Source: Marmoricola sp. (GTDB lineage Bacteria; Actinomycetota; Actinomycetes; Propionibacteriales; Nocardioidaceae). From it: a DNA stretch of 64,000 nucleotides. Both the position numbers and the translations under genes were made by a program. Location: the NCBI GenBank assembly GCA_046598915.1, contig JBKJHO010000028.1, positions 2,039 through 66,038 on the forward strand, read 5' to 3'. Under the pieces are notes generated by a model. It made no database searches. It was not told where the DNA came from and worked only from the letters and a program-made list of their open reading frames with translations. Shown here piece by piece: positions 7,264 to 23,811 of this stretch. Numbering within the stretch: position 1 is the stretch's first letter; each line of letters starts with the position of its first letter.

Positions 7264-8601
7264 TCAGGCCGAGGTGACCGCGAACAGCGGCCAGCTTCCG
7301 GGCAGGCCCTTCAGCGTGTGCTCGCCCGCCGGCTCGCAGCGGTACGGCGACCCGGCGAGCAGGTCCCCGACGGTCCGGGTGATGAGTACCTCGCCGGGGC
7401 CTGCCTTGCCGGAGACGCGTGCGCCGACGTGTACGGCGACGCCGGCGACGTCGGGGCCGCGGAGCTCGACCTCGCCGATGTGCGCCCCGGCCCGGATCTC
7501 GACCCCGGCCGCCCTCAAGGTCCGGCCGATCGCCAGCGCGGCGGCCACGGCGTCGCTAGGCCGTTCGAACAGTGCCAGGTGGCCGTCGCCCATGCTTTTG
7601 CACACCCGCCCGCTGTGCCGCTTGACCTGGCGCTCGACGGTGCTGTCGATCTCATCGAGGAGGGCGGTCCACTTCAGGTCGGGCGTGGCCGCCAGTCGTT
7701 CGGTCGACCCCACGACGTCGGTGAAGAGAACGGTGAGCAGCCGTCGCTCGGCGTGAGCCAGGGCAGGCCTTTCGATGAAGGTCTCGATCTCGTTGAGCTT
7801 CTCGTCGAGGTGCGTGGTGAAAAAGATGTTGTCGCCGGAGTCGTACTCGACGATGCGCGCGTCAGGAATGTTTGCGGCGAGATAGCGAGCGCCCTCGATC
7901 GGAGCCCACCGGTCGTGGGTGCTGTGCAGGATCAGGGTCGGTGCGGTGATCGAGGGGAGCAGGTCGCGGACATCGGTCGCGAGGGCGACCTCGACGTAGG
8001 CCCGTGCAGTTGCCGGGCTCACCCGTCCGGCGGCCTCGAGCCAGTTCCAGAGATCGGTGTCTGCCGGGTTCGACGGGGTCATCAACATCGGAAGGTCCTG
8101 CGGGCCGAATCCCGCTCCCGGGTGGTCGAACTCGGCGTCGAGCGCGGGGATCACGTGCGTCGGTAAGCCGTACGGCCAGTCGGGGCGGTTGCTCGGACAC
8201 GGCGTTGTGGAGGAGAGGATCAGCTTCGAGACCCGGTCCGGGTGGGTGGCCGCCAGCACCATCGTGGCCTGGCAGTCCCAGGAGTTGCCGAAGATCACGG
8301 CATCCTCAACTTCGAGCGCATCGAGGACGCAGAGCAGGTCGCCCACCTGGTGATCCAGGGTGGGCGGCTCACCGGGAGGCAGCGGATCCGAGTAGCCCAT
8401 GCCACGCCGGTCCAGGCTGATCCGGGTGGTGAAGGTGGCGAGCTGGCGCTGCGTCCGGGAGCAGCGTGGCTCGTCGAAGAGCCCGGCGGAGATGACCGTC
8501 CCTCCGGGCCAGCTGACGAGGAGGGGTCCGTTGCCCATCTTCCAGTAGCCGATGTGGGCGCCGTCGCCCCGCGGTGCGTAGCCGATCTGCGGTGTCGCCA
8601 T
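7264..8601 (-). CDS. Alpha/beta-hydrolase fused to class III adenylate cyclase (LipJ/Rv1900c-like)
   Basis: N-terminal DRRGMGYSD hydrolase fold; C-terminal LFTDVVGST, KSMGDG, DVAGVAVHVGARV; AAGGAGG RBS. Confidence 0.9.
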   Translation of the reverse strand: MATPQIGYAPRGDGAHIGYWKMGNGPLLVSWPGGTVISAGLFDEPRCSRTQRQLATFTTRISLDRRGMGYSDPLPPGEPPTLDHQVGDLLCVLDALEVEDAVIFGNSWDCQATMVLAATHPDRVSKLILSSTTPCPSNRPDWPYGLPTHVIPALDAEFDHPGAGFGPQDLPMLMTPSNPADTDLWNWLEAAGRVSPATARAYVEVALATDVRDLLPSITAPTLILHSTHDRWAPIEGARYLAANIPDARIVEYDSGDNIFFTTHLDEKLNEIETFIERPALAHAERRLLTVLFTDVVGSTERLAATPDLKWTALLDEIDSTVERQVKRHSGRVCKSMGDGHLALFERPSDAVAAALAIGRTLRAAGVEIRAGAHIGEVELRGPDVAGVAVHVGARVSGKAGPGEVLITRTVGDLLAGSPYRCEPAGEHTLKGLPGSWPLFAVTSA

Positions 8602-8673
8602 CGACACCTCCTTAGGTCGGGCCTCGTTCTCCCCGCGCTCAGGCTAACCGTTGGGTGCGGGTGACGACGTCCG

Positions 8674-16484: not shown

Positions 16485-16560
16485 GGCGTCACGCTAACGC
16501 GTGCGGCCAAGGCTCCTCGAGCCCCTTGCCGTCCGCGTCTCCGCAGGTGAGACTCCCCGC

Positions 16561-18372
16561 ATGGGCTTCCTTGCTTTCACGCCGCCACCGATTGAGCCGG
16601 CGCAGTTCCTGGCCAGCCCGTTCCGCGAGCGGATGCGGCTCCTGGTCGTCGACTGGGTCGACAACGGCTTCGGTACGCCGCGCTACATCCACCTGATCTA
16701 CATCGCGAAGGTGCTCTTCCTCTACATCGCGCTGGGGCTCTTCCTGATCAGCCGGACCTCCGACGTCGGTGGGCTCAGCGACTTCTCCGCATGGTGGGAT
16801 GAGCCGATCGTCTACCAGAAGCTGGTGGTCTGGACGATGTTCCTGGAGGCCTTCGGGCTGGCCGGGACGTGGGGCCCGCTCTGCGGTCACTTCAAGCCGA
16901 TGACCGGGGCGATCACGTACTGGATCCGTCCCGGCACCATCCGGATCGCGCCGTGGCCGACGAGGGTCCCGCTGACCGGCGGCGACACCAGGACTGTCGT
17001 CGACGTCATCCTGTACGTCGGCCTGCTGGGGTCGCTGATGACTGCTTTCCTGCTTCCGGGCGTGGACTCCGGCTCCCTGACCGCCGTGCTCCCCGACGCG
17101 ACCGGCGGACTGGTCCGCCCCGAGGCGCTGTTCCCGATCATCGTGCTCGCGGTGCTGCTCGGACTGCGTGACAAGGTGATCTTCCTGGCCGCCCGCAGCG
17201 AGCAGTACCTGCCGCCGATCCTGTTCTCGGCGACGCTCTCCTTCACCGACCTGATCATCGCGCTGAAGATGACGATCGTGATGGTCTGGCTCGGCGCCGG
17301 TGTCTCCAAGTTCGGCGACCACTTCGTCAACGTCGTACCGACGATGGTGGCGAACGCGCCTTTCAACCCGTCGAAGCAGATCAGCCGGGCGCACTTCAAG
17401 AAGGTGCCGGACGACCTGCGTCCGTCCGGGCTCGCGTGGTTCATGGCGCACGTCGGCGGGACCACGGTCGAGCTGCTGATCCCGTTGACCCTGCTGCTCA
17501 CCACCAACACCACGGTCGCGCTGCTCGGCGCCGTCGCGATGGTGACCTTCCACCTCTTCATCACCTCGTTGTTCCCACTGGCCGTCCCCTTGGAGTGGAA
17601 CATCTTCTACGCCTTCGCGGCGATCTTCCTTTTCGTCGGCTACCCGTCCGGCGAGGGCTACGCGGTCTGGGACTTCTCCGAGCCGTGGATGCTGCCGGTC
17701 TTCGCCGTCTGCCTGGCGTTCTTCCCGGTGCTCGGCAACCTGCGTCCGGACCTGGTCTCGTTCCTGCCCTCGATGCGTCAGTACGCCGGCAACTGGGCCT
17801 CGGCGACCTGGGTGATGGCCCCGGGCATCGAGGAGCGGCTCAACGAGCTGCCGAAGCCGGCGCCGAACCAGACCGACCAGCTGGTCGCGATGGGCTACGA
17901 GCCGGACTTCTCCGAGATCACCATCCAGAAGGCCCTCGCCTGGCGGGCGATGCACAGCCAAGGTCGTGGCCTCTACTCGGTGATGCTCCGCGAGTACGGC
18001 GACGACATCGAGCGCTACACGGTCCGCGAGGCCGAGTTCGTCTGCAACACTCTGGTCGGCTGGAACTTCGGTGACGGGCACCTGCACAACGAGACCCTGA
18101 TCGCTGCGGTGCAGCGCCGGTTGAACTTCGCACCCGGCGAGCTGGTGGTGATCTGGGTCGAGTCCCAGGCGATCCACAAGAAGACCCAGGAGTACAAGAT
18201 CATCGATGCCGCCGTCGGGGTCGTTCAGCGCGGTACCTGGGTCGTCGCGGAGGCGGTGGCCGAGCAGCCGTGGTTGCCGAACGGGCCGATTCCGATCGAC
18301 GTGACGTGGAGCGACCCGACGTACGTGCGGCCGCGTGACCCGGGCGCGACTCCCGATTCGGAGAGCGTGTGA
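16561..18372 (+). CDS. DUF3556 family membrane protein
   Basis: WVDNGFGTP, AVPLEWN, SFLPSMRQYAGNW, GWNFGDGHLH. Confidence 0.88.
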   Translation: MGFLAFTPPPIEPAQFLASPFRERMRLLVVDWVDNGFGTPRYIHLIYIAKVLFLYIALGLFLISRTSDVGGLSDFSAWWDEPIVYQKLVVWTMFLEAFGLAGTWGPLCGHFKPMTGAITYWIRPGTIRIAPWPTRVPLTGGDTRTVVDVILYVGLLGSLMTAFLLPGVDSGSLTAVLPDATGGLVRPEALFPIIVLAVLLGLRDKVIFLAARSEQYLPPILFSATLSFTDLIIALKMTIVMVWLGAGVSKFGDHFVNVVPTMVANAPFNPSKQISRAHFKKVPDDLRPSGLAWFMAHVGGTTVELLIPLTLLLTTNTTVALLGAVAMVTFHLFITSLFPLAVPLEWNIFYAFAAIFLFVGYPSGEGYAVWDFSEPWMLPVFAVCLAFFPVLGNLRPDLVSFLPSMRQYAGNWASATWVMAPGIEERLNELPKPAPNQTDQLVAMGYEPDFSEITIQKALAWRAMHSQGRGLYSVMLREYGDDIERYTVREAEFVCNTLVGWNFGDGHLHNETLIAAVQRRLNFAPGELVVIWVESQAIHKKTQEYKIIDAAVGVVQRGTWVVAEAVAEQPWLPNGPIPIDVTWSDPTYVRPRDPGATPDSESV

Positions 18373-19793
18373 CCCGGGCGGTCGTCGTCGGCAGCGGGCC
18401 CAACGGCCTTGCGGGCGCGGTCAGGCTGGCGCAGGCGGGACTCGAGGTCACCGTCCTGGAGGCGGCGGACACCATCGGCGGCGGCACCCGTACGACGGAA
18501 CGGATCGTCCCGGGCCTGCTGCACGACGACTGCGCGGCGTTCCACCCCACCGGCGTGACGTCGCCGTACTTCTCGACCCTCGGGCTGGAACAGCACGGCC
18601 TGAGCTGGCTCTGGCCCGAGATCGACTTCGCCCACCCGCTGGACGACGGCCGGGCGGGCGTGGTGACTCGCGACTTTGCCGACACCGATCGGACGTTGGG
18701 CGACGACGCGCGGAGCTGGCGCCGGGTCTTCGAACCGTTGGTCCGGACCTTCGACAAGATCCTGGCCGATGCGATGGGTCCGGCGATACACGTCCCGAAG
18801 CACCCGGTCGCGTTCGGCCGCTTCGGCCCGCAAGCACTTCTCCCGGCGACGGTGACGGCCAAGCACTGGAAGGACGACCCGGCCCGGGCGCTCTACATGG
18901 GTGTGGCCGCGCACGCGTTCGGGCGGTTGGACACGCCCCTGAGCGGATCGGTCGGGTTGCTGCTCGCCGCTGCCGGGCACCGGGCCGGCTGGCCGGTCGC
19001 CGAGGGCGGCAGCCGGGCGATCGCGGACGCTCTGGTGCGGGTGCTGACCTCGCTGGGCGGCTCTGTCCGCACCGGGGTCACGGTGACGTCGCCGCGCCAG
19101 CTGCGTGACGTCCTGGGGCACGACCCGGACGTCGTCCTGCTCGACGTGTCCCCCGCCGGCGTGCTCGACATCTACGGTGATGCCCTGCCAGGGCGAGTAC
19201 TCCGGGCCTTCCGCCGCTACGAGTACGGGCCCGCGGTCCACAAGGTCGACTACGCCATCGAAGGCGACGTGCCGTGGACCAACGAGGACTGCCGTCGCGC
19301 GGGCACCCTGCACATCGGAGGAACCGCGGAGGAGATCGTGAAGGTCGAGGGAGCAACGGCCCGCGGCGAGATGCCCGAGCGGCCGTTCGCCCTGATCGGC
19401 CAGCAGTACCTCGCTGATCCGAGCCGCTCCTCGGGGTCGGTCAACCCGGTCTGGGCCTATGCACACGTACCTGCCGGCTACACCGGCGATGCCACCGACG
19501 CGCTCACCGCCCAGATCGAACGCTTCGCCCCGGGTTTCCGGGACCGCATCGTCGGTACCTACACCCGGTCGGCAACCGAGATGGCGTCGTACAACGCGAA
19601 CTACGTCGGTGGAGACATTGGCGTCGGGGCCAACACCGCCCGCCAGATCGTCTTCCGTCCGCGAGCAGCCCTCAACCCGTACACGCTCGGCATCGACGGG
19701 GTCTACCTCTGCTCCTCGGCCGCGGCTCCCGGCGGGGGGGTCCACGGCATGTGCGGCTTCAACGCCGCAGAGACGGCGCTGAAGCGGCTCTAG
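18369..19793 (+). CDS. Phytoene-desaturase-like FAD-dependent oxidoreductase
   Basis: VVVGSGPNGL Rossmann motif, PGGGVHGMCG; GTGA overlap with DUF3556. Confidence 0.9.
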   Translation: MTRAVVVGSGPNGLAGAVRLAQAGLEVTVLEAADTIGGGTRTTERIVPGLLHDDCAAFHPTGVTSPYFSTLGLEQHGLSWLWPEIDFAHPLDDGRAGVVTRDFADTDRTLGDDARSWRRVFEPLVRTFDKILADAMGPAIHVPKHPVAFGRFGPQALLPATVTAKHWKDDPARALYMGVAAHAFGRLDTPLSGSVGLLLAAAGHRAGWPVAEGGSRAIADALVRVLTSLGGSVRTGVTVTSPRQLRDVLGHDPDVVLLDVSPAGVLDIYGDALPGRVLRAFRRYEYGPAVHKVDYAIEGDVPWTNEDCRRAGTLHIGGTAEEIVKVEGATARGEMPERPFALIGQQYLADPSRSSGSVNPVWAYAHVPAGYTGDATDALTAQIERFAPGFRDRIVGTYTRSATEMASYNANYVGGDIGVGANTARQIVFRPRAALNPYTLGIDGVYLCSSAAAPGGGVHGMCGFNAAETALKRL

Positions 19794-19844
19794 CTGCGCG
19801 GCTCGGGAGATGTCGAGCCTGGCGCTGCGCCGCTGTCCGGGGTC

Positions 19845-20372
19845 TCAGTCGACCGGTGTGATCCCCGCCAGGTGCCGCTGCGCCAGCTCCGCGTAGTACG
19901 CCGGGTTGGCGTCCACCCAGAACTGCGCCATCGTTCCCTCGATCGGCTTCTTCACCTGCGCCGGCGTCCCGGCGGCCAGCACCCCCGGAGGTATCTGCGT
20001 CCCGGGGCTGACCAGCGAACCGGCAGCCACCATCGACCCAGCGCCGAGACGAGTGTCATCGAGCAGGGTGCTGCTGTTCCCGAGCAGCGACTTCTCCTCC
20101 AGCACGGCGCCGTGGACGACGCAGGAGTGCGCGACGGTGGCACCGGGTCCGACCTCGACGACGGCGTCCGGAGCACCGTGGAGGACGGAGTTGTCCTGGA
20201 CGTTGGCGCCCTCGCGGATCACGATCGAGCAGATGTCGCCCCGCAGTACGGCGCCGTACCAGACGCTGGCGCCCTTCTCGACGGTCACGTCGCCGATCAG
20301 GGTTGCGGTCGGGGCAACGAAGGCTTCGGGGTGGACGGTGGGGCGCTTGCCCTCGAACTCGAAGAGATGCAC
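19845..20372 (-). CDS. Gamma carbonic anhydrase family protein
   Basis: Hexapeptide repeats, VLRGD, NVQDNSVLH, AHSCVVH zinc ligands; GTG start at 20372. Confidence 0.9.
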   Translation of the reverse strand: MHLFEFEGKRPTVHPEAFVAPTATLIGDVTVEKGASVWYGAVLRGDICSIVIREGANVQDNSVLHGAPDAVVEVGPGATVAHSCVVHGAVLEEKSLLGNSSTLLDDTRLGAGSMVAAGSLVSPGTQIPPGVLAAGTPAQVKKPIEGTMAQFWVDANPAYYAELAQRHLAGITPVD

Positions 20373-20382
20373 GAGGGCGACG

Positions 20383-21861
20383 TTACTGGGGGTCGGAAGT
20401 TTCGGCAGGCTCGACGTCGACGGCGCCGAGCGGTTCGGGTGGGGCGAGCGGGTGGTCCGGGTCGCCACCGTAGTCAGCGCTGCCGTCGGCGGCGGCGGAC
20501 GCTCGCTGGACCGGGACCGTACCTGGCGTCGTCAGGACGGGTGGCGCTACCAGGGTGTCCTCGATCGTGACCTCGACTGGCTCTGCCATCCCAGAGAGCT
20601 TGATCATCTCGCGGCGCCACCCGGGCGTCTCCTCGAGTGACCGGGCCGTCCCCGGTCCCATCAGGATCTGACCGTCCTGGGCGCGGCTGCAGAGCCGCGC
20701 GGAGAGGTTCACGGTGGTGCCGATGGCGGCGTACTCGAGCTGTTGCGCGGTGCCGATCGCTCCGACGGCGCACTCCCCCGAGGAGATTCCGATACCGATG
20801 CCGAGCGGCGTCTCCGGGGTCGCCCACTTGTCCGTCACGCTTCGGACCCGGGCCATCATGTGCCGCGCGAGGCGGAGGCCAACCCGGGTGTGGTCCGGAC
20901 GTGGGTAGGGCGCCCCGACCAGGATCAGGGCCCCGTCCCCGGCGAAGTCCTTGACGGTCGCGCCGTACTCCTTGGCAGCGTCGATGACGACGGCGTAGTA
21001 CTCCTGGAGCACCTGGACCATGAACTCGGCGCCGTGCGCCTGGGTGAAGCTGGTGAAGCCACGCAGATCGATGCTGACCGCGGTGAGGCTGTAGATCTCG
21101 GTCCGGATGTCCGTGCTGAGCCCGGAGAGGTGCGCGGTCTCGGCAATGTCGGGGGACACGAACCGCGCCATGTTGCTGCGTTCGTCGAAGAGCGTGTCCT
21201 GCTGGGTCTCGATGATCAGGTGGTCCACGTAGGTCTGCCGGGTGATCCACTCCATCGCGAGGTTGAGCACCATTCCGGTCAGCAAGGCGGTCAACGGGAT
21301 GAAGAGCCCGACCGCGAACTGCTGGTCGTCGACGACACCGTCGGCGTGCAGCTGGTAGGCGGCACCGGCCGCGAGCAGGCAGTACGGCGTGACCGAGAAG
21401 AACGCCACCACCGGCGGCAACCGGAACATCGTCAGGCCGAAGTACGCCGCCATCGTCACGCAGGCGCCGGTCAGCGCCGGCTGGTCCATCTTGTAGGTGA
21501 GTGCGACCGCGAGGATGCCACCGACCAGGTTGGCCAGAGCGCTCCAGGTCTGGGTCAGGTGGCTGGTGCTGTCGCTGCGGGAAACCGCGGCTCCGACCAG
21601 CAGCAGCCCGATCATTGCCGGGATCAGCACCAGGGCGAGGCCGCGGAAGTGGTCGAGCGCGCCGAAGATGACAGCTATGAACGCACAGAACGCAGCGCCG
21701 GCGGCGCCGTACATGGCGACGTGGGTGAACGTCCGGACGTGGTCGCGTCGCCACGTCCGGTAGGAAGCCTCAACCGCCTCTTCGGTGAACCGCAACCCCC
21801 ATTGGGTCTCCGGAGAGGTGAGTTCCGAGACGACCGGCCATCCGTCAGGCCTGGTCATCAC
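20383..21861 (-). CDS. 6-TM membrane class III nucleotide cyclase
   Basis: TM N-terminus; IDLRGFT, KDFAGDG, EYAAIGTTVNLSARL. Confidence 0.9.
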   Translation of the reverse strand: MMTRPDGWPVVSELTSPETQWGLRFTEEAVEASYRTWRRDHVRTFTHVAMYGAAGAAFCAFIAVIFGALDHFRGLALVLIPAMIGLLLVGAAVSRSDSTSHLTQTWSALANLVGGILAVALTYKMDQPALTGACVTMAAYFGLTMFRLPPVVAFFSVTPYCLLAAGAAYQLHADGVVDDQQFAVGLFIPLTALLTGMVLNLAMEWITRQTYVDHLIIETQQDTLFDERSNMARFVSPDIAETAHLSGLSTDIRTEIYSLTAVSIDLRGFTSFTQAHGAEFMVQVLQEYYAVVIDAAKEYGATVKDFAGDGALILVGAPYPRPDHTRVGLRLARHMMARVRSVTDKWATPETPLGIGIGISSGECAVGAIGTAQQLEYAAIGTTVNLSARLCSRAQDGQILMGPGTARSLEETPGWRREMIKLSGMAEPVEVTIEDTLVAPPVLTTPGTVPVQRASAAADGSADYGGDPDHPLAPPEPLGAVDVEPAETSDPQ

Positions 21862-21872
21862 TCATCGGTCTG

Positions 21873-22301
21873 TCAGTCACCCTGGTCGCGACGAACCCGC
21901 TCTTCGGTGGCGCCGGTGAGGGCGTCCTTGAAGTGCGGGATCTTCGAGTTCAGCTCGGCCACTGTCTCGGCCGTGAAGTGCAGCGCCTCCAGGGGGGTCT
22001 CGGTGATGACCGTCGCCGAGCGGAGCTTGTGGTTGACCAGTGCCATCTCGCCGACCAGATCACCGGCGCCCACGCGAGCGACCTCGGTGCCGGAGCGACG
22101 TACGGAGACCTCGCCGGACAGGATCAGGTACGCCTTGTCGGCCGGCGTGTTCTCGGCGATCATCGCCCATCCCTCAGGAACGGTCAGGTAGGTCGACGTG
22201 TCCAGGACCATCCGGATCTCGTTGTCGCTGAAATCCTTGAACCGGGTCAGCTTGGCAAGCTGCTGGATCCGTGCTTTGTCGTCGGACTCTTTGCCGCGCA
22301 T
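21873..22301 (-). CDS. Stand-alone cyclic nucleotide-binding domain protein
   Basis: YLILSGEV...GDLVGEMAL...RSATV; GAGGAG RBS before ATG 22301. Confidence 0.9.
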   Translation of the reverse strand: MRGKESDDKARIQQLAKLTRFKDFSDNEIRMVLDTSTYLTVPEGWAMIAENTPADKAYLILSGEVSVRRSGTEVARVGAGDLVGEMALVNHKLRSATVITETPLEALHFTAETVAELNSKIPHFKDALTGATEERVRRDQGD

Positions 22302-22476
22302 TCGCGGACTCCTCTCGTGCGACCCGAACCTGGTCGCGCAGGCTGCTCCCTTGGGTAGATTCTCATGGCTGGAGAGGGGCTTGTCCATCACCCGCCCGGG
22401 TGTGTGCCCGTTGAGTGTTCCGGGCCCGGGGCCGGCCTCGGACCTGGCCAGGGATCGTAGGGGTAGGTTTCGGCCC

Positions 22477-23811
22477 ATGACGGCGACGGTCTGCATCATC
22501 GGCGCAGGGTCCTCGGGGATCACTGCCGCACAGGTCCTGAACGCCCGCGGAGTGGAGTTCGACTGCTATGAGGTCGGCAGCGAGGTCGGCGGGAACTGGC
22601 GCTACGGCAACGACAACGCGATGTCCTCGGCGTACGCCTCATTGCACATCAACACCTCGCGCCATCTGATGGAGTACGCCGCCTACCCGATGCCGGAGAC
22701 GCTGCCGGACTACCCGAGCCATGGGCAGATCGCGGCCTACTTCGACGCCTACGTCGACCACTTCGGATTCCGGGACCGGATCAGCTTCGGTACCGAGGTC
22801 GTCCGCGTCGAGCCGGTCCCCGGCGGCGGGTACGACGTCACGGTCCGGGCCGCGGGAGGTGCCGGCGCGGCCCCGGACACCCGACGTTACGAGCAGGTGA
22901 TCGTTGCGAACGGACACCACTGGAAGCCCCGTTGGCCGGAGCCTTCCTTCCCCGGTGCCGACACCTTCCCCGGCGAGGAGATCCACGCGCACCACTACCG
23001 GACACCGGAACCGCTCACCGGCAAGCGTGTCCTGGTCCTCGGCATCGGGAACTCGGCCTGCGACATCGCAGTGGAGTCATCCCGGGTGGCGACCGCCACC
23101 GACCTGGCGATGCGACGCGGCGCCCACATCTTCCCGAAGTTCATGTTTGGCGTACCGACCGACCACCTGACCGACTCCGCCCTCGCGCGGGGACCGCTGA
23201 AGGTCCAGCAGGTGGCGATGTCGCTGATGCTCCGGCTGACCCAGGGCAAGGTCACCGACTACGGGCTCCCGGAGCCGGACCACGCCGTCCTGCAGGCGCA
23301 TCCGACGGTGAGCCAGGACCTGCTCAACCGGCTCGGGCACGGTGACATCACCATCAGGCCGAACATCGACCGGTTCGAGGGCTCCAAGGTCTTCTTCACC
23401 GACGGCACCGCGGGCGAGTACGACGTCGTCGTCTACTGCACCGGCTACGTGGTGAGCTTCCCGTTCCTCGACGACCGGGTGGTGCCCGCCGAGGACAACC
23501 ACATCGACCTCTACCGGCGGGTCGTCGACCCGGAGAACCCAGGCCTCTACTTCATCGGCCTGATCCAGCCGCTGGGCGCGATCATGCCGCTCGCGGAGGC
23601 GCAGGCCGAATGGGTCGGCGACCTGATCACCGGAGTAGGGGTACTGCCCCCGGTCGAGGAGATGAAAGCGCAGATCGCCGATTACGACCGGAAGCTGACC
23701 AAGCGGTACGTCGCCTCGAAGCGGCACACCATCCAGGTCGACTTCCACGGCTACCGGTCCGAGATCGCCAAGGAGCGCAAGCGCGCGGGACGACGGGCCC
23801 GCAAGCGCTGA
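22477..23811 (+). CDS. Flavin-containing monooxygenase
   Basis: IIGAGSSG, FPGEEIHAHHY (FMO motif), LGIGNSA, YCTGY. Confidence 0.92.
   Translation: MTATVCIIGAGSSGITAAQVLNARGVEFDCYEVGSEVGGNWRYGNDNAMSSAYASLHINTSRHLMEYAAYPMPETLPDYPSHGQIAAYFDAYVDHFGFRDRISFGTEVVRVEPVPGGGYDVTVRAAGGAGAAPDTRRYEQVIVANGHHWKPRWPEPSFPGADTFPGEEIHAHHYRTPEPLTGKRVLVLGIGNSACDIAVESSRVATATDLAMRRGAHIFPKFMFGVPTDHLTDSALARGPLKVQQVAMSLMLRLTQGKVTDYGLPEPDHAVLQAHPTVSQDLLNRLGHGDITIRPNIDRFEGSKVFFTDGTAGEYDVVVYCTGYVVSFPFLDDRVVPAEDNHIDLYRRVVDPENPGLYFIGLIQPLGAIMPLAEAQAEWVGDLITGVGVLPPVEEMKAQIADYDRKLTKRYVASKRHTIQVDFHGYRSEIAKERKRAGRRARKR

Follow-up and report, generated by a model that had tools for sequence, protein, structure and literature searches.

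A membrane-anchored class III cyclase of Marmoricola with Asp at the substrate-lysine site and a linked, output-less cyclic nucleotide-binding protein

The substrate choice of class III nucleotidyl cyclases is commonly inferred from two residues of the base pocket, and the locus described here raises the question of which nucleotide is made when both residues depart from the rule for adenylyl cyclases. It lies at 19845-22301 of the window, a stretch of 64,000 nucleotides of contig JBKJHO010000028.1 from Marmoricola sp. (GCA_046598915.1), and comprises three genes (the trio) for a stand-alone cyclic nucleotide-binding (CNB) protein, a class III cyclase predicted to have six transmembrane (TM) helices, and a gamma-carbonic anhydrase (gamma-CA)-like protein. 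The source is a metagenome-assembled genome (MAG) of a soil actinobacterium, 2.6 Mb long and 74% complete, whose nearest named relatives belong to Marmoricola and Nocardioides (Nocardioidaceae). An earlier note, made from the sequence, had read the trio as a self-contained signaling pair for cyclic GMP (cGMP) or another nucleotide other than cyclic AMP (cAMP), possibly tied to bicarbonate. In this study, the pocket was found to be non-canonical and strongly conserved, and the CNB gene to be a constant partner of the cyclase in its clade; from these sequences we tentatively lean to a product that is cAMP, or to a purine specificity relaxed between cAMP and cGMP. The features are as follows.

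21873-22301, minus strand: gene of the CNB protein, 142 aa, stand-alone, without an output domain; ATG at 22301; PF00027, 9e-15
20383-21861, minus strand: gene of the six-TM class III nucleotidyl cyclase, 492 aa from a GTG; PF00211, 1.4e-15
19845-20372, minus strand: gamma-CA-like gene (CamH/YrdA/PaaY type), 175 aa from a GTG; left-handed beta-helix; Hexapep, 8.5e-14
21247..21780, minus strand: membrane anchor of the cyclase, residues ~28-205; six helices with very short loops
20557..21099, minus strand: catalytic domain of the cyclase, residues ~255-435; metal D265 and D309, transition-state N385 and R389
20947..20952, minus strand: codons K304-D305, with Asp305 at the canonical substrate-defining Lys site
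20728..20730, minus strand: codon A378, the second base-selecting site, where adenylyl cyclases have Asp or Thr
22359..22387, minus strand: promoter-like site TGGACA-17-GAGAAT upstream of the CNB gene; consensus match only

The catalytic domain was aligned using HMMER with five solved cyclases (2w01, 6fht, 3r5g, 1wc1, and 1wc0), with no gaps from the first base-selecting site (site 1) to the metal Asp. D305 is aligned with Glu in Cya2 (2w01) and with Lys in CyaC and CyaB, and A378 at the second site (site 2) with Gly in Cya2 and with Thr in CyaC and CyaB; the key strand reads T-V-K-D-F-A-G-D-G here, T-I-D-E-F-M-G-D-G in Cya2, and T-[IV]-D-K-F-V-G-D in CyaB and CyaC. The Lys that canonical adenylyl cyclases carry four residues before the second metal Asp is Asp305 in this enzyme, and their site-2 residue, Asp in classes IIIa and IIIc and Thr or Ser in class IIIb, is Ala378. 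Canonical guanylyl cyclases have Glu at site 1, where this enzyme has Asp, though aligned with the Glu of Cya2, and Cys, Ser, Thr, His, Ala, or Gly at site 2 (PMC4215837), a set that includes Ala378. The third position of the base pocket is a small Ala307. The motifs quoted in the earlier note are all present, namely, IDLRGFT (D265), VKDFAGDG (K304, D305, and D309), LEYAAIG (A378), and VNLSAR (N385 and R389), and the non-canonical pocket that it described, with Asp instead of Lys at site 1 and Ala at site 2, was borne out; its comparison with guanylyl cyclases holds for the acidic site 1 and the small site 2 but not for the acidic residue itself, which is Asp rather than the Glu of known guanylyl cyclases. 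No characterized class III cyclase with Asp at the Lys site was found in the literature searched.

The earlier note had also allowed that the Lys of K-D-F might occupy the canonical site, which would have overturned its reading, but the alignment with structural relatives places D305 there. Lys304 lies one residue before D305 on the same beta-strand (302-307 in the model described below), and from strand geometry its side chain should face away from the D305 side. The ungapped alignment, the single strand, and the constant spacing in relatives rule out Lys304 as a stand-in for the canonical Lys, and a register shift is unlikely because relatives keep [DE]-[RHK]-F at unchanged spacing.

Full-length homologs of the cyclase, 87% to 39% identical to it, occur in groups ranging from Nocardioidaceae to Nevskiales, Betaproteobacteria, and Armatimonadetes. 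Of the 121 homologs across phyla, 118 have K-D-F-A-G-D-G, which shows how strongly the base-site motif is conserved. Ala occupies site 2 in 88 of the 121 and Thr in 33, and in a maximum-likelihood tree the Ala378 sequences form a monophyletic clade (84 tips, support 1.0; the Ala clade) nested among the Thr-type sequences. More distant relatives of the catalytic domain, from Bradyrhizobium, Rhodopseudomonas, and Burkholderiales, have D-R-F, E-R-F, or E-H-F with the spacing unchanged, so that site 1 is variable in the wider family. The K-D form resembles the usual acidic-basic pair with its two residues exchanged (K-D for D-K). Judged from their sequences, the KD-type cyclases form a large uncharacterized family whose full-length members number more than 100 and range from Actinobacteria to Proteobacteria. 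Relatives with Arg or His at the substrate-Lys site (T-L-D-R-F-A-G-D-G and T-I-E-H-F-A-G-D-G; loci L076-L125), often with Ala or Ser at site 2, are a candidate for another uncharacterized specificity class.

The assignment of the enzyme to class III rests on both profile and fold. PF00211 (Guanylate_cyc) matches residues 262-412 with 57.8 bits against a cut-off of 21.9, and an AlphaFold2 model built with 30 homologs (mean predicted local distance difference test score of 84.8) has six TM helices followed by a class III catalytic domain, the sixth TM helix extending as a long helix into the cytosol (DSSP helices 28-65, 73-95, 100-123, 128-145, 150-173, and 179-232). The top Foldseek match of the full-length model is the six-TM adenylyl cyclase Rv1625c (7yzk), and the catalytic domain is about equally close to CyaC (TM-score 0.85-0.89) and Cya2 (0.82-0.83). 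N111, G115, R147, P150, E204, and R208 are invariant in the membrane anchor. No Pfam family, MASE8 included, matched the anchor above the cut-off in the Pfam scan, and MASE8 or another known sensor domain was rejected on this ground; one distant homolog carries a precomputed MASE8 annotation that was not reproduced in the scan. D265, D309, N385, and R389 align with those of the solved enzymes and are invariant in 121 of 121 homologs, as are the D-L-R-G-F-T loop (the GFT phosphate loop) and R267, down to 39% identity. Since the metal Asp pair, the Asn/Arg pair, and the loop are retained, the cyclase is probably catalytically competent.

Gene linkage was counted in 15 species-level genomes of the Ala clade, with duplicates between sources removed. 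The CNB gene is directly upstream of the cyclase gene in all 15, and the gamma-CA gene is directly downstream in 13, at times overlapping the cyclase stop; the two that lack it are N. pocheonensis and an uncultured Actinomycetota MAG. Among the Thr-type or more distant full-length homologs, none of 11 had an adjacent CNB or gamma-CA gene. The full gene order occurs in at least two different flanking contexts, one of which has a BTAD/NB-ARC regulator upstream. Inheritance of the locus is vertical, its neighbors are conserved housekeeping genes (FMO, FAD oxidoreductase, and DUF3556), and it does not lie in a defense island. An 82%-identical gamma-CA gene is found without the other two in a different genome of the genus, beside a BTAD gene, and in a metagenomic locus (L162:5001-6068) the CNB gene is directly followed by the gamma-CA gene (83% identity), the cyclase being missing. 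Because CNB-cyclase, CNB-gamma-CA, and lone gamma-CA arrangements all occur, the CNB-cyclase pair is the conserved core and the gamma-CA is facultative; an obligate gamma-CA partner is rejected by the two loci without it and by its occurrence alone elsewhere. Thus, the linkage of CNB and cyclase genes on which the earlier proposal relied holds throughout the clade, whereas the three-gene linkage holds only in part. A sister-clade cyclase without K-D (T-V-S-G-F-S-G-D-G; L045:3501-7105) has a 67%-identical CNB ortholog 1.8 kb downstream, with an SDR gene and a queuosine-synthesis gene in between.

The CNB protein matches PF00027 with 54.8 bits against a cut-off of 27.5, as well as the CNB domains of PKA-R, PKG, MloK1, and CRP. 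Its phosphate-binding cassette GEMALVNHKLRSATV (G84-V98), of the pattern G-E-x-A-L ... R-[ST]-A, is invariant in 28 aligned homologs, and the LRSAT reported earlier is found in it (R94-T97). The family comprises 271 homologs of near-constant length, about 142 aa. The database name of CRP/FNR transcription factor was ruled out for a protein of this size in which only the CNB domain was matched and which has no helix-turn-helix; the CRP model aligns residues 23-138 with model positions 10-131 of 214 only. The sole longer match, P0242 (CNB plus Hexapep, 355 aa), is a false fusion produced by assembly frameshifts at the metagenomic locus without the cyclase, where the neighboring FMO gene is broken too; by the search tool's own warning, the absence of true CNB fusions is weak evidence.

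The same genome carries eight CNB genes, one of which encodes a 133-aa paralog that is 47% identical to the trio CNB protein, with the cassette GEVAIVSHTLRTASV against GEMALVNHKLRSATV and a closely similar C-helix. It keeps the equivalents of F124, A127, L128, G130, and R135, and has Asp for E134. Its gene (L126:2445-2846) is directly upstream of that for an Rv1264-type cyclase with the canonical Lys/Asp pair (1y10, 2.7e-28), the two genes together spanning L126:1338-2846 (G000:C52:4837-6345, minus strand). This pairing occurs in 27 of the 28 related loci, which come from the genus and from a second family. The two bicistrons share a CNB gene of about 135-142 codons directly upstream of a class III cyclase; unlike the trio enzyme, the Rv1264-type cyclase is soluble, has the Rv1264 N-terminal regulatory domain and Lys/Asp, and is without a gamma-CA. 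Sequence comparison suggests that a small CNB protein with a cyclase is an old, lineage-wide design of which the trio would be a later copy, and the Rv1264-type bicistron may stand for a general class in which small CNB proteins partner cyclases. The description of the trio as a self-contained pair loses force here, as several CNB-cyclase pairs, the trio among them, are encoded in a genome that has at least 15 cyclase domains. The paralog has R-T-A-S where the trio CNB protein has R-S-A-T, and R-T is the more PKG-like. Because this paralog partners a canonical Lys/Asp adenylyl cyclase, R-S-A-T is not diagnostic for cGMP, and the hint to cGMP that had been drawn from it was rejected by this in-genome control. 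The near-identical pockets, compared by sequence, are evidence that both proteins may bind the same nucleotide, most simply cAMP; this evidence is moderate, since CNB domains with such a cassette can bind both cAMP and cGMP.

Characterized non-canonical cyclases of other actinobacteria stay adenylyl cyclases: the mycobacterial Rv1900c (Asn/His) and Rv0386 (Gln/Asn) depart from the rule, yet are mainly adenylyl cyclases. This and the near-sameness of the CNB pockets are why we lean to cAMP or relaxed purine specificity. Several findings weigh against this reading. By sequence, the solved enzyme nearest to the catalytic domain is the guanylyl cyclase Cya2 (2w01, 3e-23, about 30% identity), followed by an engineered Lys variant of Cya2, CyaB, and CyaC. 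An acidic site 1, kept in 118 of the 121 homologs, together with a small site 2 follows guanylyl-cyclase logic, and guanylyl cyclases, which pair Glu with C/S/T/H/A/G (PMC4215837), tolerate Ala at site 2, as in the Xanthomonas guanylyl cyclase XC_0250 (A150; PMC3770947). The small Ala307 at the third position likewise favors guanine. The Thr-to-Ala change at site 2 coincides with the gain of a dedicated CNB partner and could mark a change of specificity. Furthermore, the gamma-phosphate Lys is replaced by Ser423, a position that is Ser or Ala across most of the Ala clade, and cyclase activity could therefore be low. All but the last of these findings also speak for a cGMP module, a serious possibility to which we nevertheless give less weight, in which Asp305 would act as the guanylyl-cyclase Glu and accept guanine N1-H/N2-H, Ala378 and Ala307 would make room, and the CNB protein would be the cGMP receptor. 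The linkage of guanylyl-cyclase genes to receptor genes is a known bacterial pattern (PMC3770947 and PMC10187061), and a Glu/Thr cyclase in the same genome suggests that cGMP chemistry may exist in the lineage. However, Asp is one methylene shorter than the guanylyl-cyclase Glu, the fold of the catalytic domain matches the adenylyl cyclase CyaC no less closely than it matches Cya2, and both the CNB pocket shared with the more PKG-like paralog and the behavior of Rv1900c and Rv0386 argue for an adenylyl cyclase. To our knowledge, every characterized guanylyl cyclase has Glu at site 1. Of the cGMP or other-nucleotide pair proposed earlier, the odd pocket and the conserved CNB-cyclase linkage thus remain, with cGMP as a possible product. 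For the KD-type cyclases as a family, we regard a non-cAMP nucleotide (cGMP, or a mixed or pyrimidine cyclic nucleoside monophosphate, cNMP) as a doubtful assignment.

The readings beyond these two are unlikely even when taken together. The CNB protein might sense cAMP made by canonical cyclases and serve as a detachable regulatory subunit of the neighboring cyclase, irrespective of the product of that enzyme, or of the gamma-CA, which would agree with the resemblance of its pocket to that of the adenylyl cyclase-linked paralog, with a genome that has at least eight canonical cyclases, with the CNB-gamma-CA locus that lacks the cyclase, and with the precedent of the CyaC-Clr complex (PMC10463352). 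Such cross-talk seems improbable, as contact between the partners would be purely hypothetical, the locus without the cyclase may reflect a recent deletion in an error-rich assembly, and CNB-cyclase pairs without a gamma-CA exist. A pyrimidine cyclase or a Pycsar-like anti-phage system making cCMP or cUMP is suggested by PADLOC matches of the cyclase to PycC (7e-14) and of the CNB protein to PycTIR (6.7e-18), and the base pocket is not purine-canonical. These scores are generic, however: a canonical Lys/Asp class IIIa cyclase of the same genome reaches 45.8 bits against 49.7 for the trio cyclase, and paralogous CNB proteins reach 46-48 bits, similar to the trio CNB protein. With controls scoring alike, no TIR or TM effector domain fused to the CNB protein, and vertical inheritance among housekeeping genes rather than in a defense island, membership in Pycsar was rejected, and we consider this reading very unlikely. 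A catalytically weak or dead cyclase domain serving as a receptor or scaffold is equally hard to credit: the loss of the substrate Lys, the site-2 Asp/Thr, and the gamma-phosphate Lys would be expected of it, but it is difficult to reconcile with a metal Asp pair, an Asn/Arg pair, a GFT loop, and an R267 that are all invariant down to 39% identity.

Returning to a product of cAMP or relaxed purine specificity, we suggest the following model. The trio would be a vertically inherited signaling operon of the Marmoricola/Nocardioides clade, in which the six-TM-anchored, homodimeric class III cyclase may receive a membrane or lipid-phase signal and make a 3',5'-cyclic nucleotide. The co-translated 142-aa CNB protein would bind this nucleotide and serve as a dedicated receptor or as a regulatory subunit. 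Its effect would be either feedback on the cyclase or the control of an unlinked target. The CNB gene probably arose as a paralog of the CNB partner of the Rv1264-type adenylyl cyclase. The gamma-CA-like gene, presumably co-transcribed in most members, would be a facultative add-on that at most tunes local CO2/HCO3-.

The gamma-CA-like protein is predicted to have the beta-helix and three His residues (His65, His82, and His87), the putative metal ligands as in the 1V3W structure. Its structure matches are 6ive (4.5e-41), 3vnp, 1v3w, and the gamma-CAs of plant complex I. It scores below the cut-offs of the equivalog families, with 150.6 bits for NF050158 (3e-44; cut-off 250), 132 for PaaY (319.6), and 114.5 for CaiE (305). 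Adenylyl cyclases of both class IIIa and class IIIb are stimulated by CO2, a response in which the part played by the substrate Lys is disputed (PMC2613629). The site-2 Thr/Ser and substrate Lys that mark bicarbonate/CO2-responsive class IIIb enzymes in that study are replaced by Asp305 and Ala378 in the trio cyclase, but these residues are not decisive, because K296A Rv1625c and K177A Slr1991 remained CO2-responsive (PMC2613629). The pocket therefore neither supports nor excludes a CO2 link. Given the facultative linkage, the gamma-CA is a secondary feature, and the tie to bicarbonate proposed earlier is weakened by this and by the loss of both class IIIb marker residues in the clade.

Compared with known systems, the trio is a variant of the operons that link a class III cyclase to a cNMP receptor, and its new elements are the Asp-for-Lys pocket and the output-less receptor. 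Linked genes or physical complexes of cyclase and receptor are known for XC_0250/XC_0249 (PMC3770947), gcyB-gcyC-cgrA of Rhodospirillum centenum (PMC10187061), and CyaC-Clr (PMC10463352). The first two share with the trio a class III cyclase gene linked to a cNMP-receptor gene, and XC_0250 also has Ala at the second substrate-specifying position. They differ in that XC_0249 is a cNMP-GGDEF receptor and the cgrA type has the CRP helix-turn-helix, whereas the trio CNB protein has no output domain; XC_0250 lacks the Asn/Arg pair that the trio cyclase keeps; and the cyclases of both systems are soluble whereas the trio enzyme is anchored by six TM helices. In those systems cGMP has been demonstrated, whereas the trio is known here from its sequence. 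Cya2 of Synechocystis PCC 6803 (2W01) has in common with the trio cyclase an acidic site 1, a small site 2, F-x-G-D-G, and the Asn/Arg pair, but it is Glu/Gly rather than Asp/Ala with Lys at position -1, and it has no six-TM anchor of this type. No stand-alone CNB gene has been reported adjacent to Cya2, whereas the trio cyclase has one, and the cGMP receptor of Cya2 is still awaited according to a review (PMC10187061). The actinobacterial Rv1625c/Cya of M. tuberculosis (7YZK) likewise has six TM helices, a helical transducer, and a single catalytic domain that has to homodimerize. It differs from the trio cyclase in its canonical Lys296/Asp365 against Asp305/Ala378, and the two membrane anchors have no sequence similarity. 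We know of no CNB or gamma-CA neighbors of Rv1625c. The enzyme is stimulated by CO2 (PMC2613629).

Among the 15 cyclase domains found in the source genome, eight have canonical K/D or K/T pairs, and the non-canonical remainder includes one Glu/Thr enzyme, two Asp/Lys enzymes, and two tandem K-D/Thr paralogs. The Glu/Thr enzyme (537 aa; L129:1555-3165; G000:C47:234554-236164, minus strand) has N-E-F-A-G-D-G and T-Y-T-A-I-G, and by the standard rule its sequence makes it a better guanylyl-cyclase candidate than the trio cyclase; it also has the top PycC model score of the set, 92 bits. The tandem paralogs at L130:1222-5283 (G000:C23) carry the canonical Lys/Asp pair with its charges exchanged (Asp at site 1, Lys at site 2), and those at L128:1896-4706 (G000:C30) have K-D-Y-A-G-D-G with Thr at site 2. 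The window itself holds a second class III cyclase domain at 7267-8643 on the minus strand (PF00211, 4e-7), in a 459-aa open frame with the canonical Lys/Asp pair.

The gene coordinates agree with the co-directional arrangement that had been noted, the CNB, cyclase, and gamma-CA-like genes following one another on the minus strand with gaps of 11 nt and 10 nt. A Shine-Dalgarno-like run, GAGAGGAG, directly precedes the CNB ATG at 22301, and the promoter-like site, 58-86 nt upstream of this first ATG, is the sole sigma-70-like match in 19600-22700 (0.1 expected by chance). The cyclase is more likely to start at the ATG at 21858 than at the GTG, because orthologs align from residue 2. The trio is flanked by a divergent FMO-like monooxygenase gene (22483-23811, plus strand) and a convergent FAD-oxidoreductase gene (18369-19793, plus strand), and is therefore a well-delimited three-gene transcription unit. 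Within 16501-19793, the FAD-dependent oxidoreductase gene overlaps that of a 623-aa DUF3556 membrane protein (2.7e-242) by 4 nt (18369-18372), and these two genes adjoin the trio in several relatives as well.

The K-D family is a broad, strongly conserved, and defined break of the two-residue substrate rule. Cultured carriers exist (N. marmoriginsengisoli, N. marmorisolisilvae, Marmoricola sp. RAF53, and OAE513), and N. pocheonensis provides a natural control without the gamma-CA. The recurrent association of cyclases with CNB proteins of about 140 aa that have no output domain suggests that detachable receptors or regulatory subunits form a class not yet described. If the product were cGMP or another non-cAMP nucleotide, non-cAMP signaling would extend to Actinobacteria, and an Asp-type determinant would be added to the specificity code on which genome annotation and optogenetic engineering draw. 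If it were of the cGMP type, the Ala378 clade with its CNB protein and, usually, its gamma-CA would be the first such pathway in Actinobacteria, perhaps tied to CO2/HCO3-.

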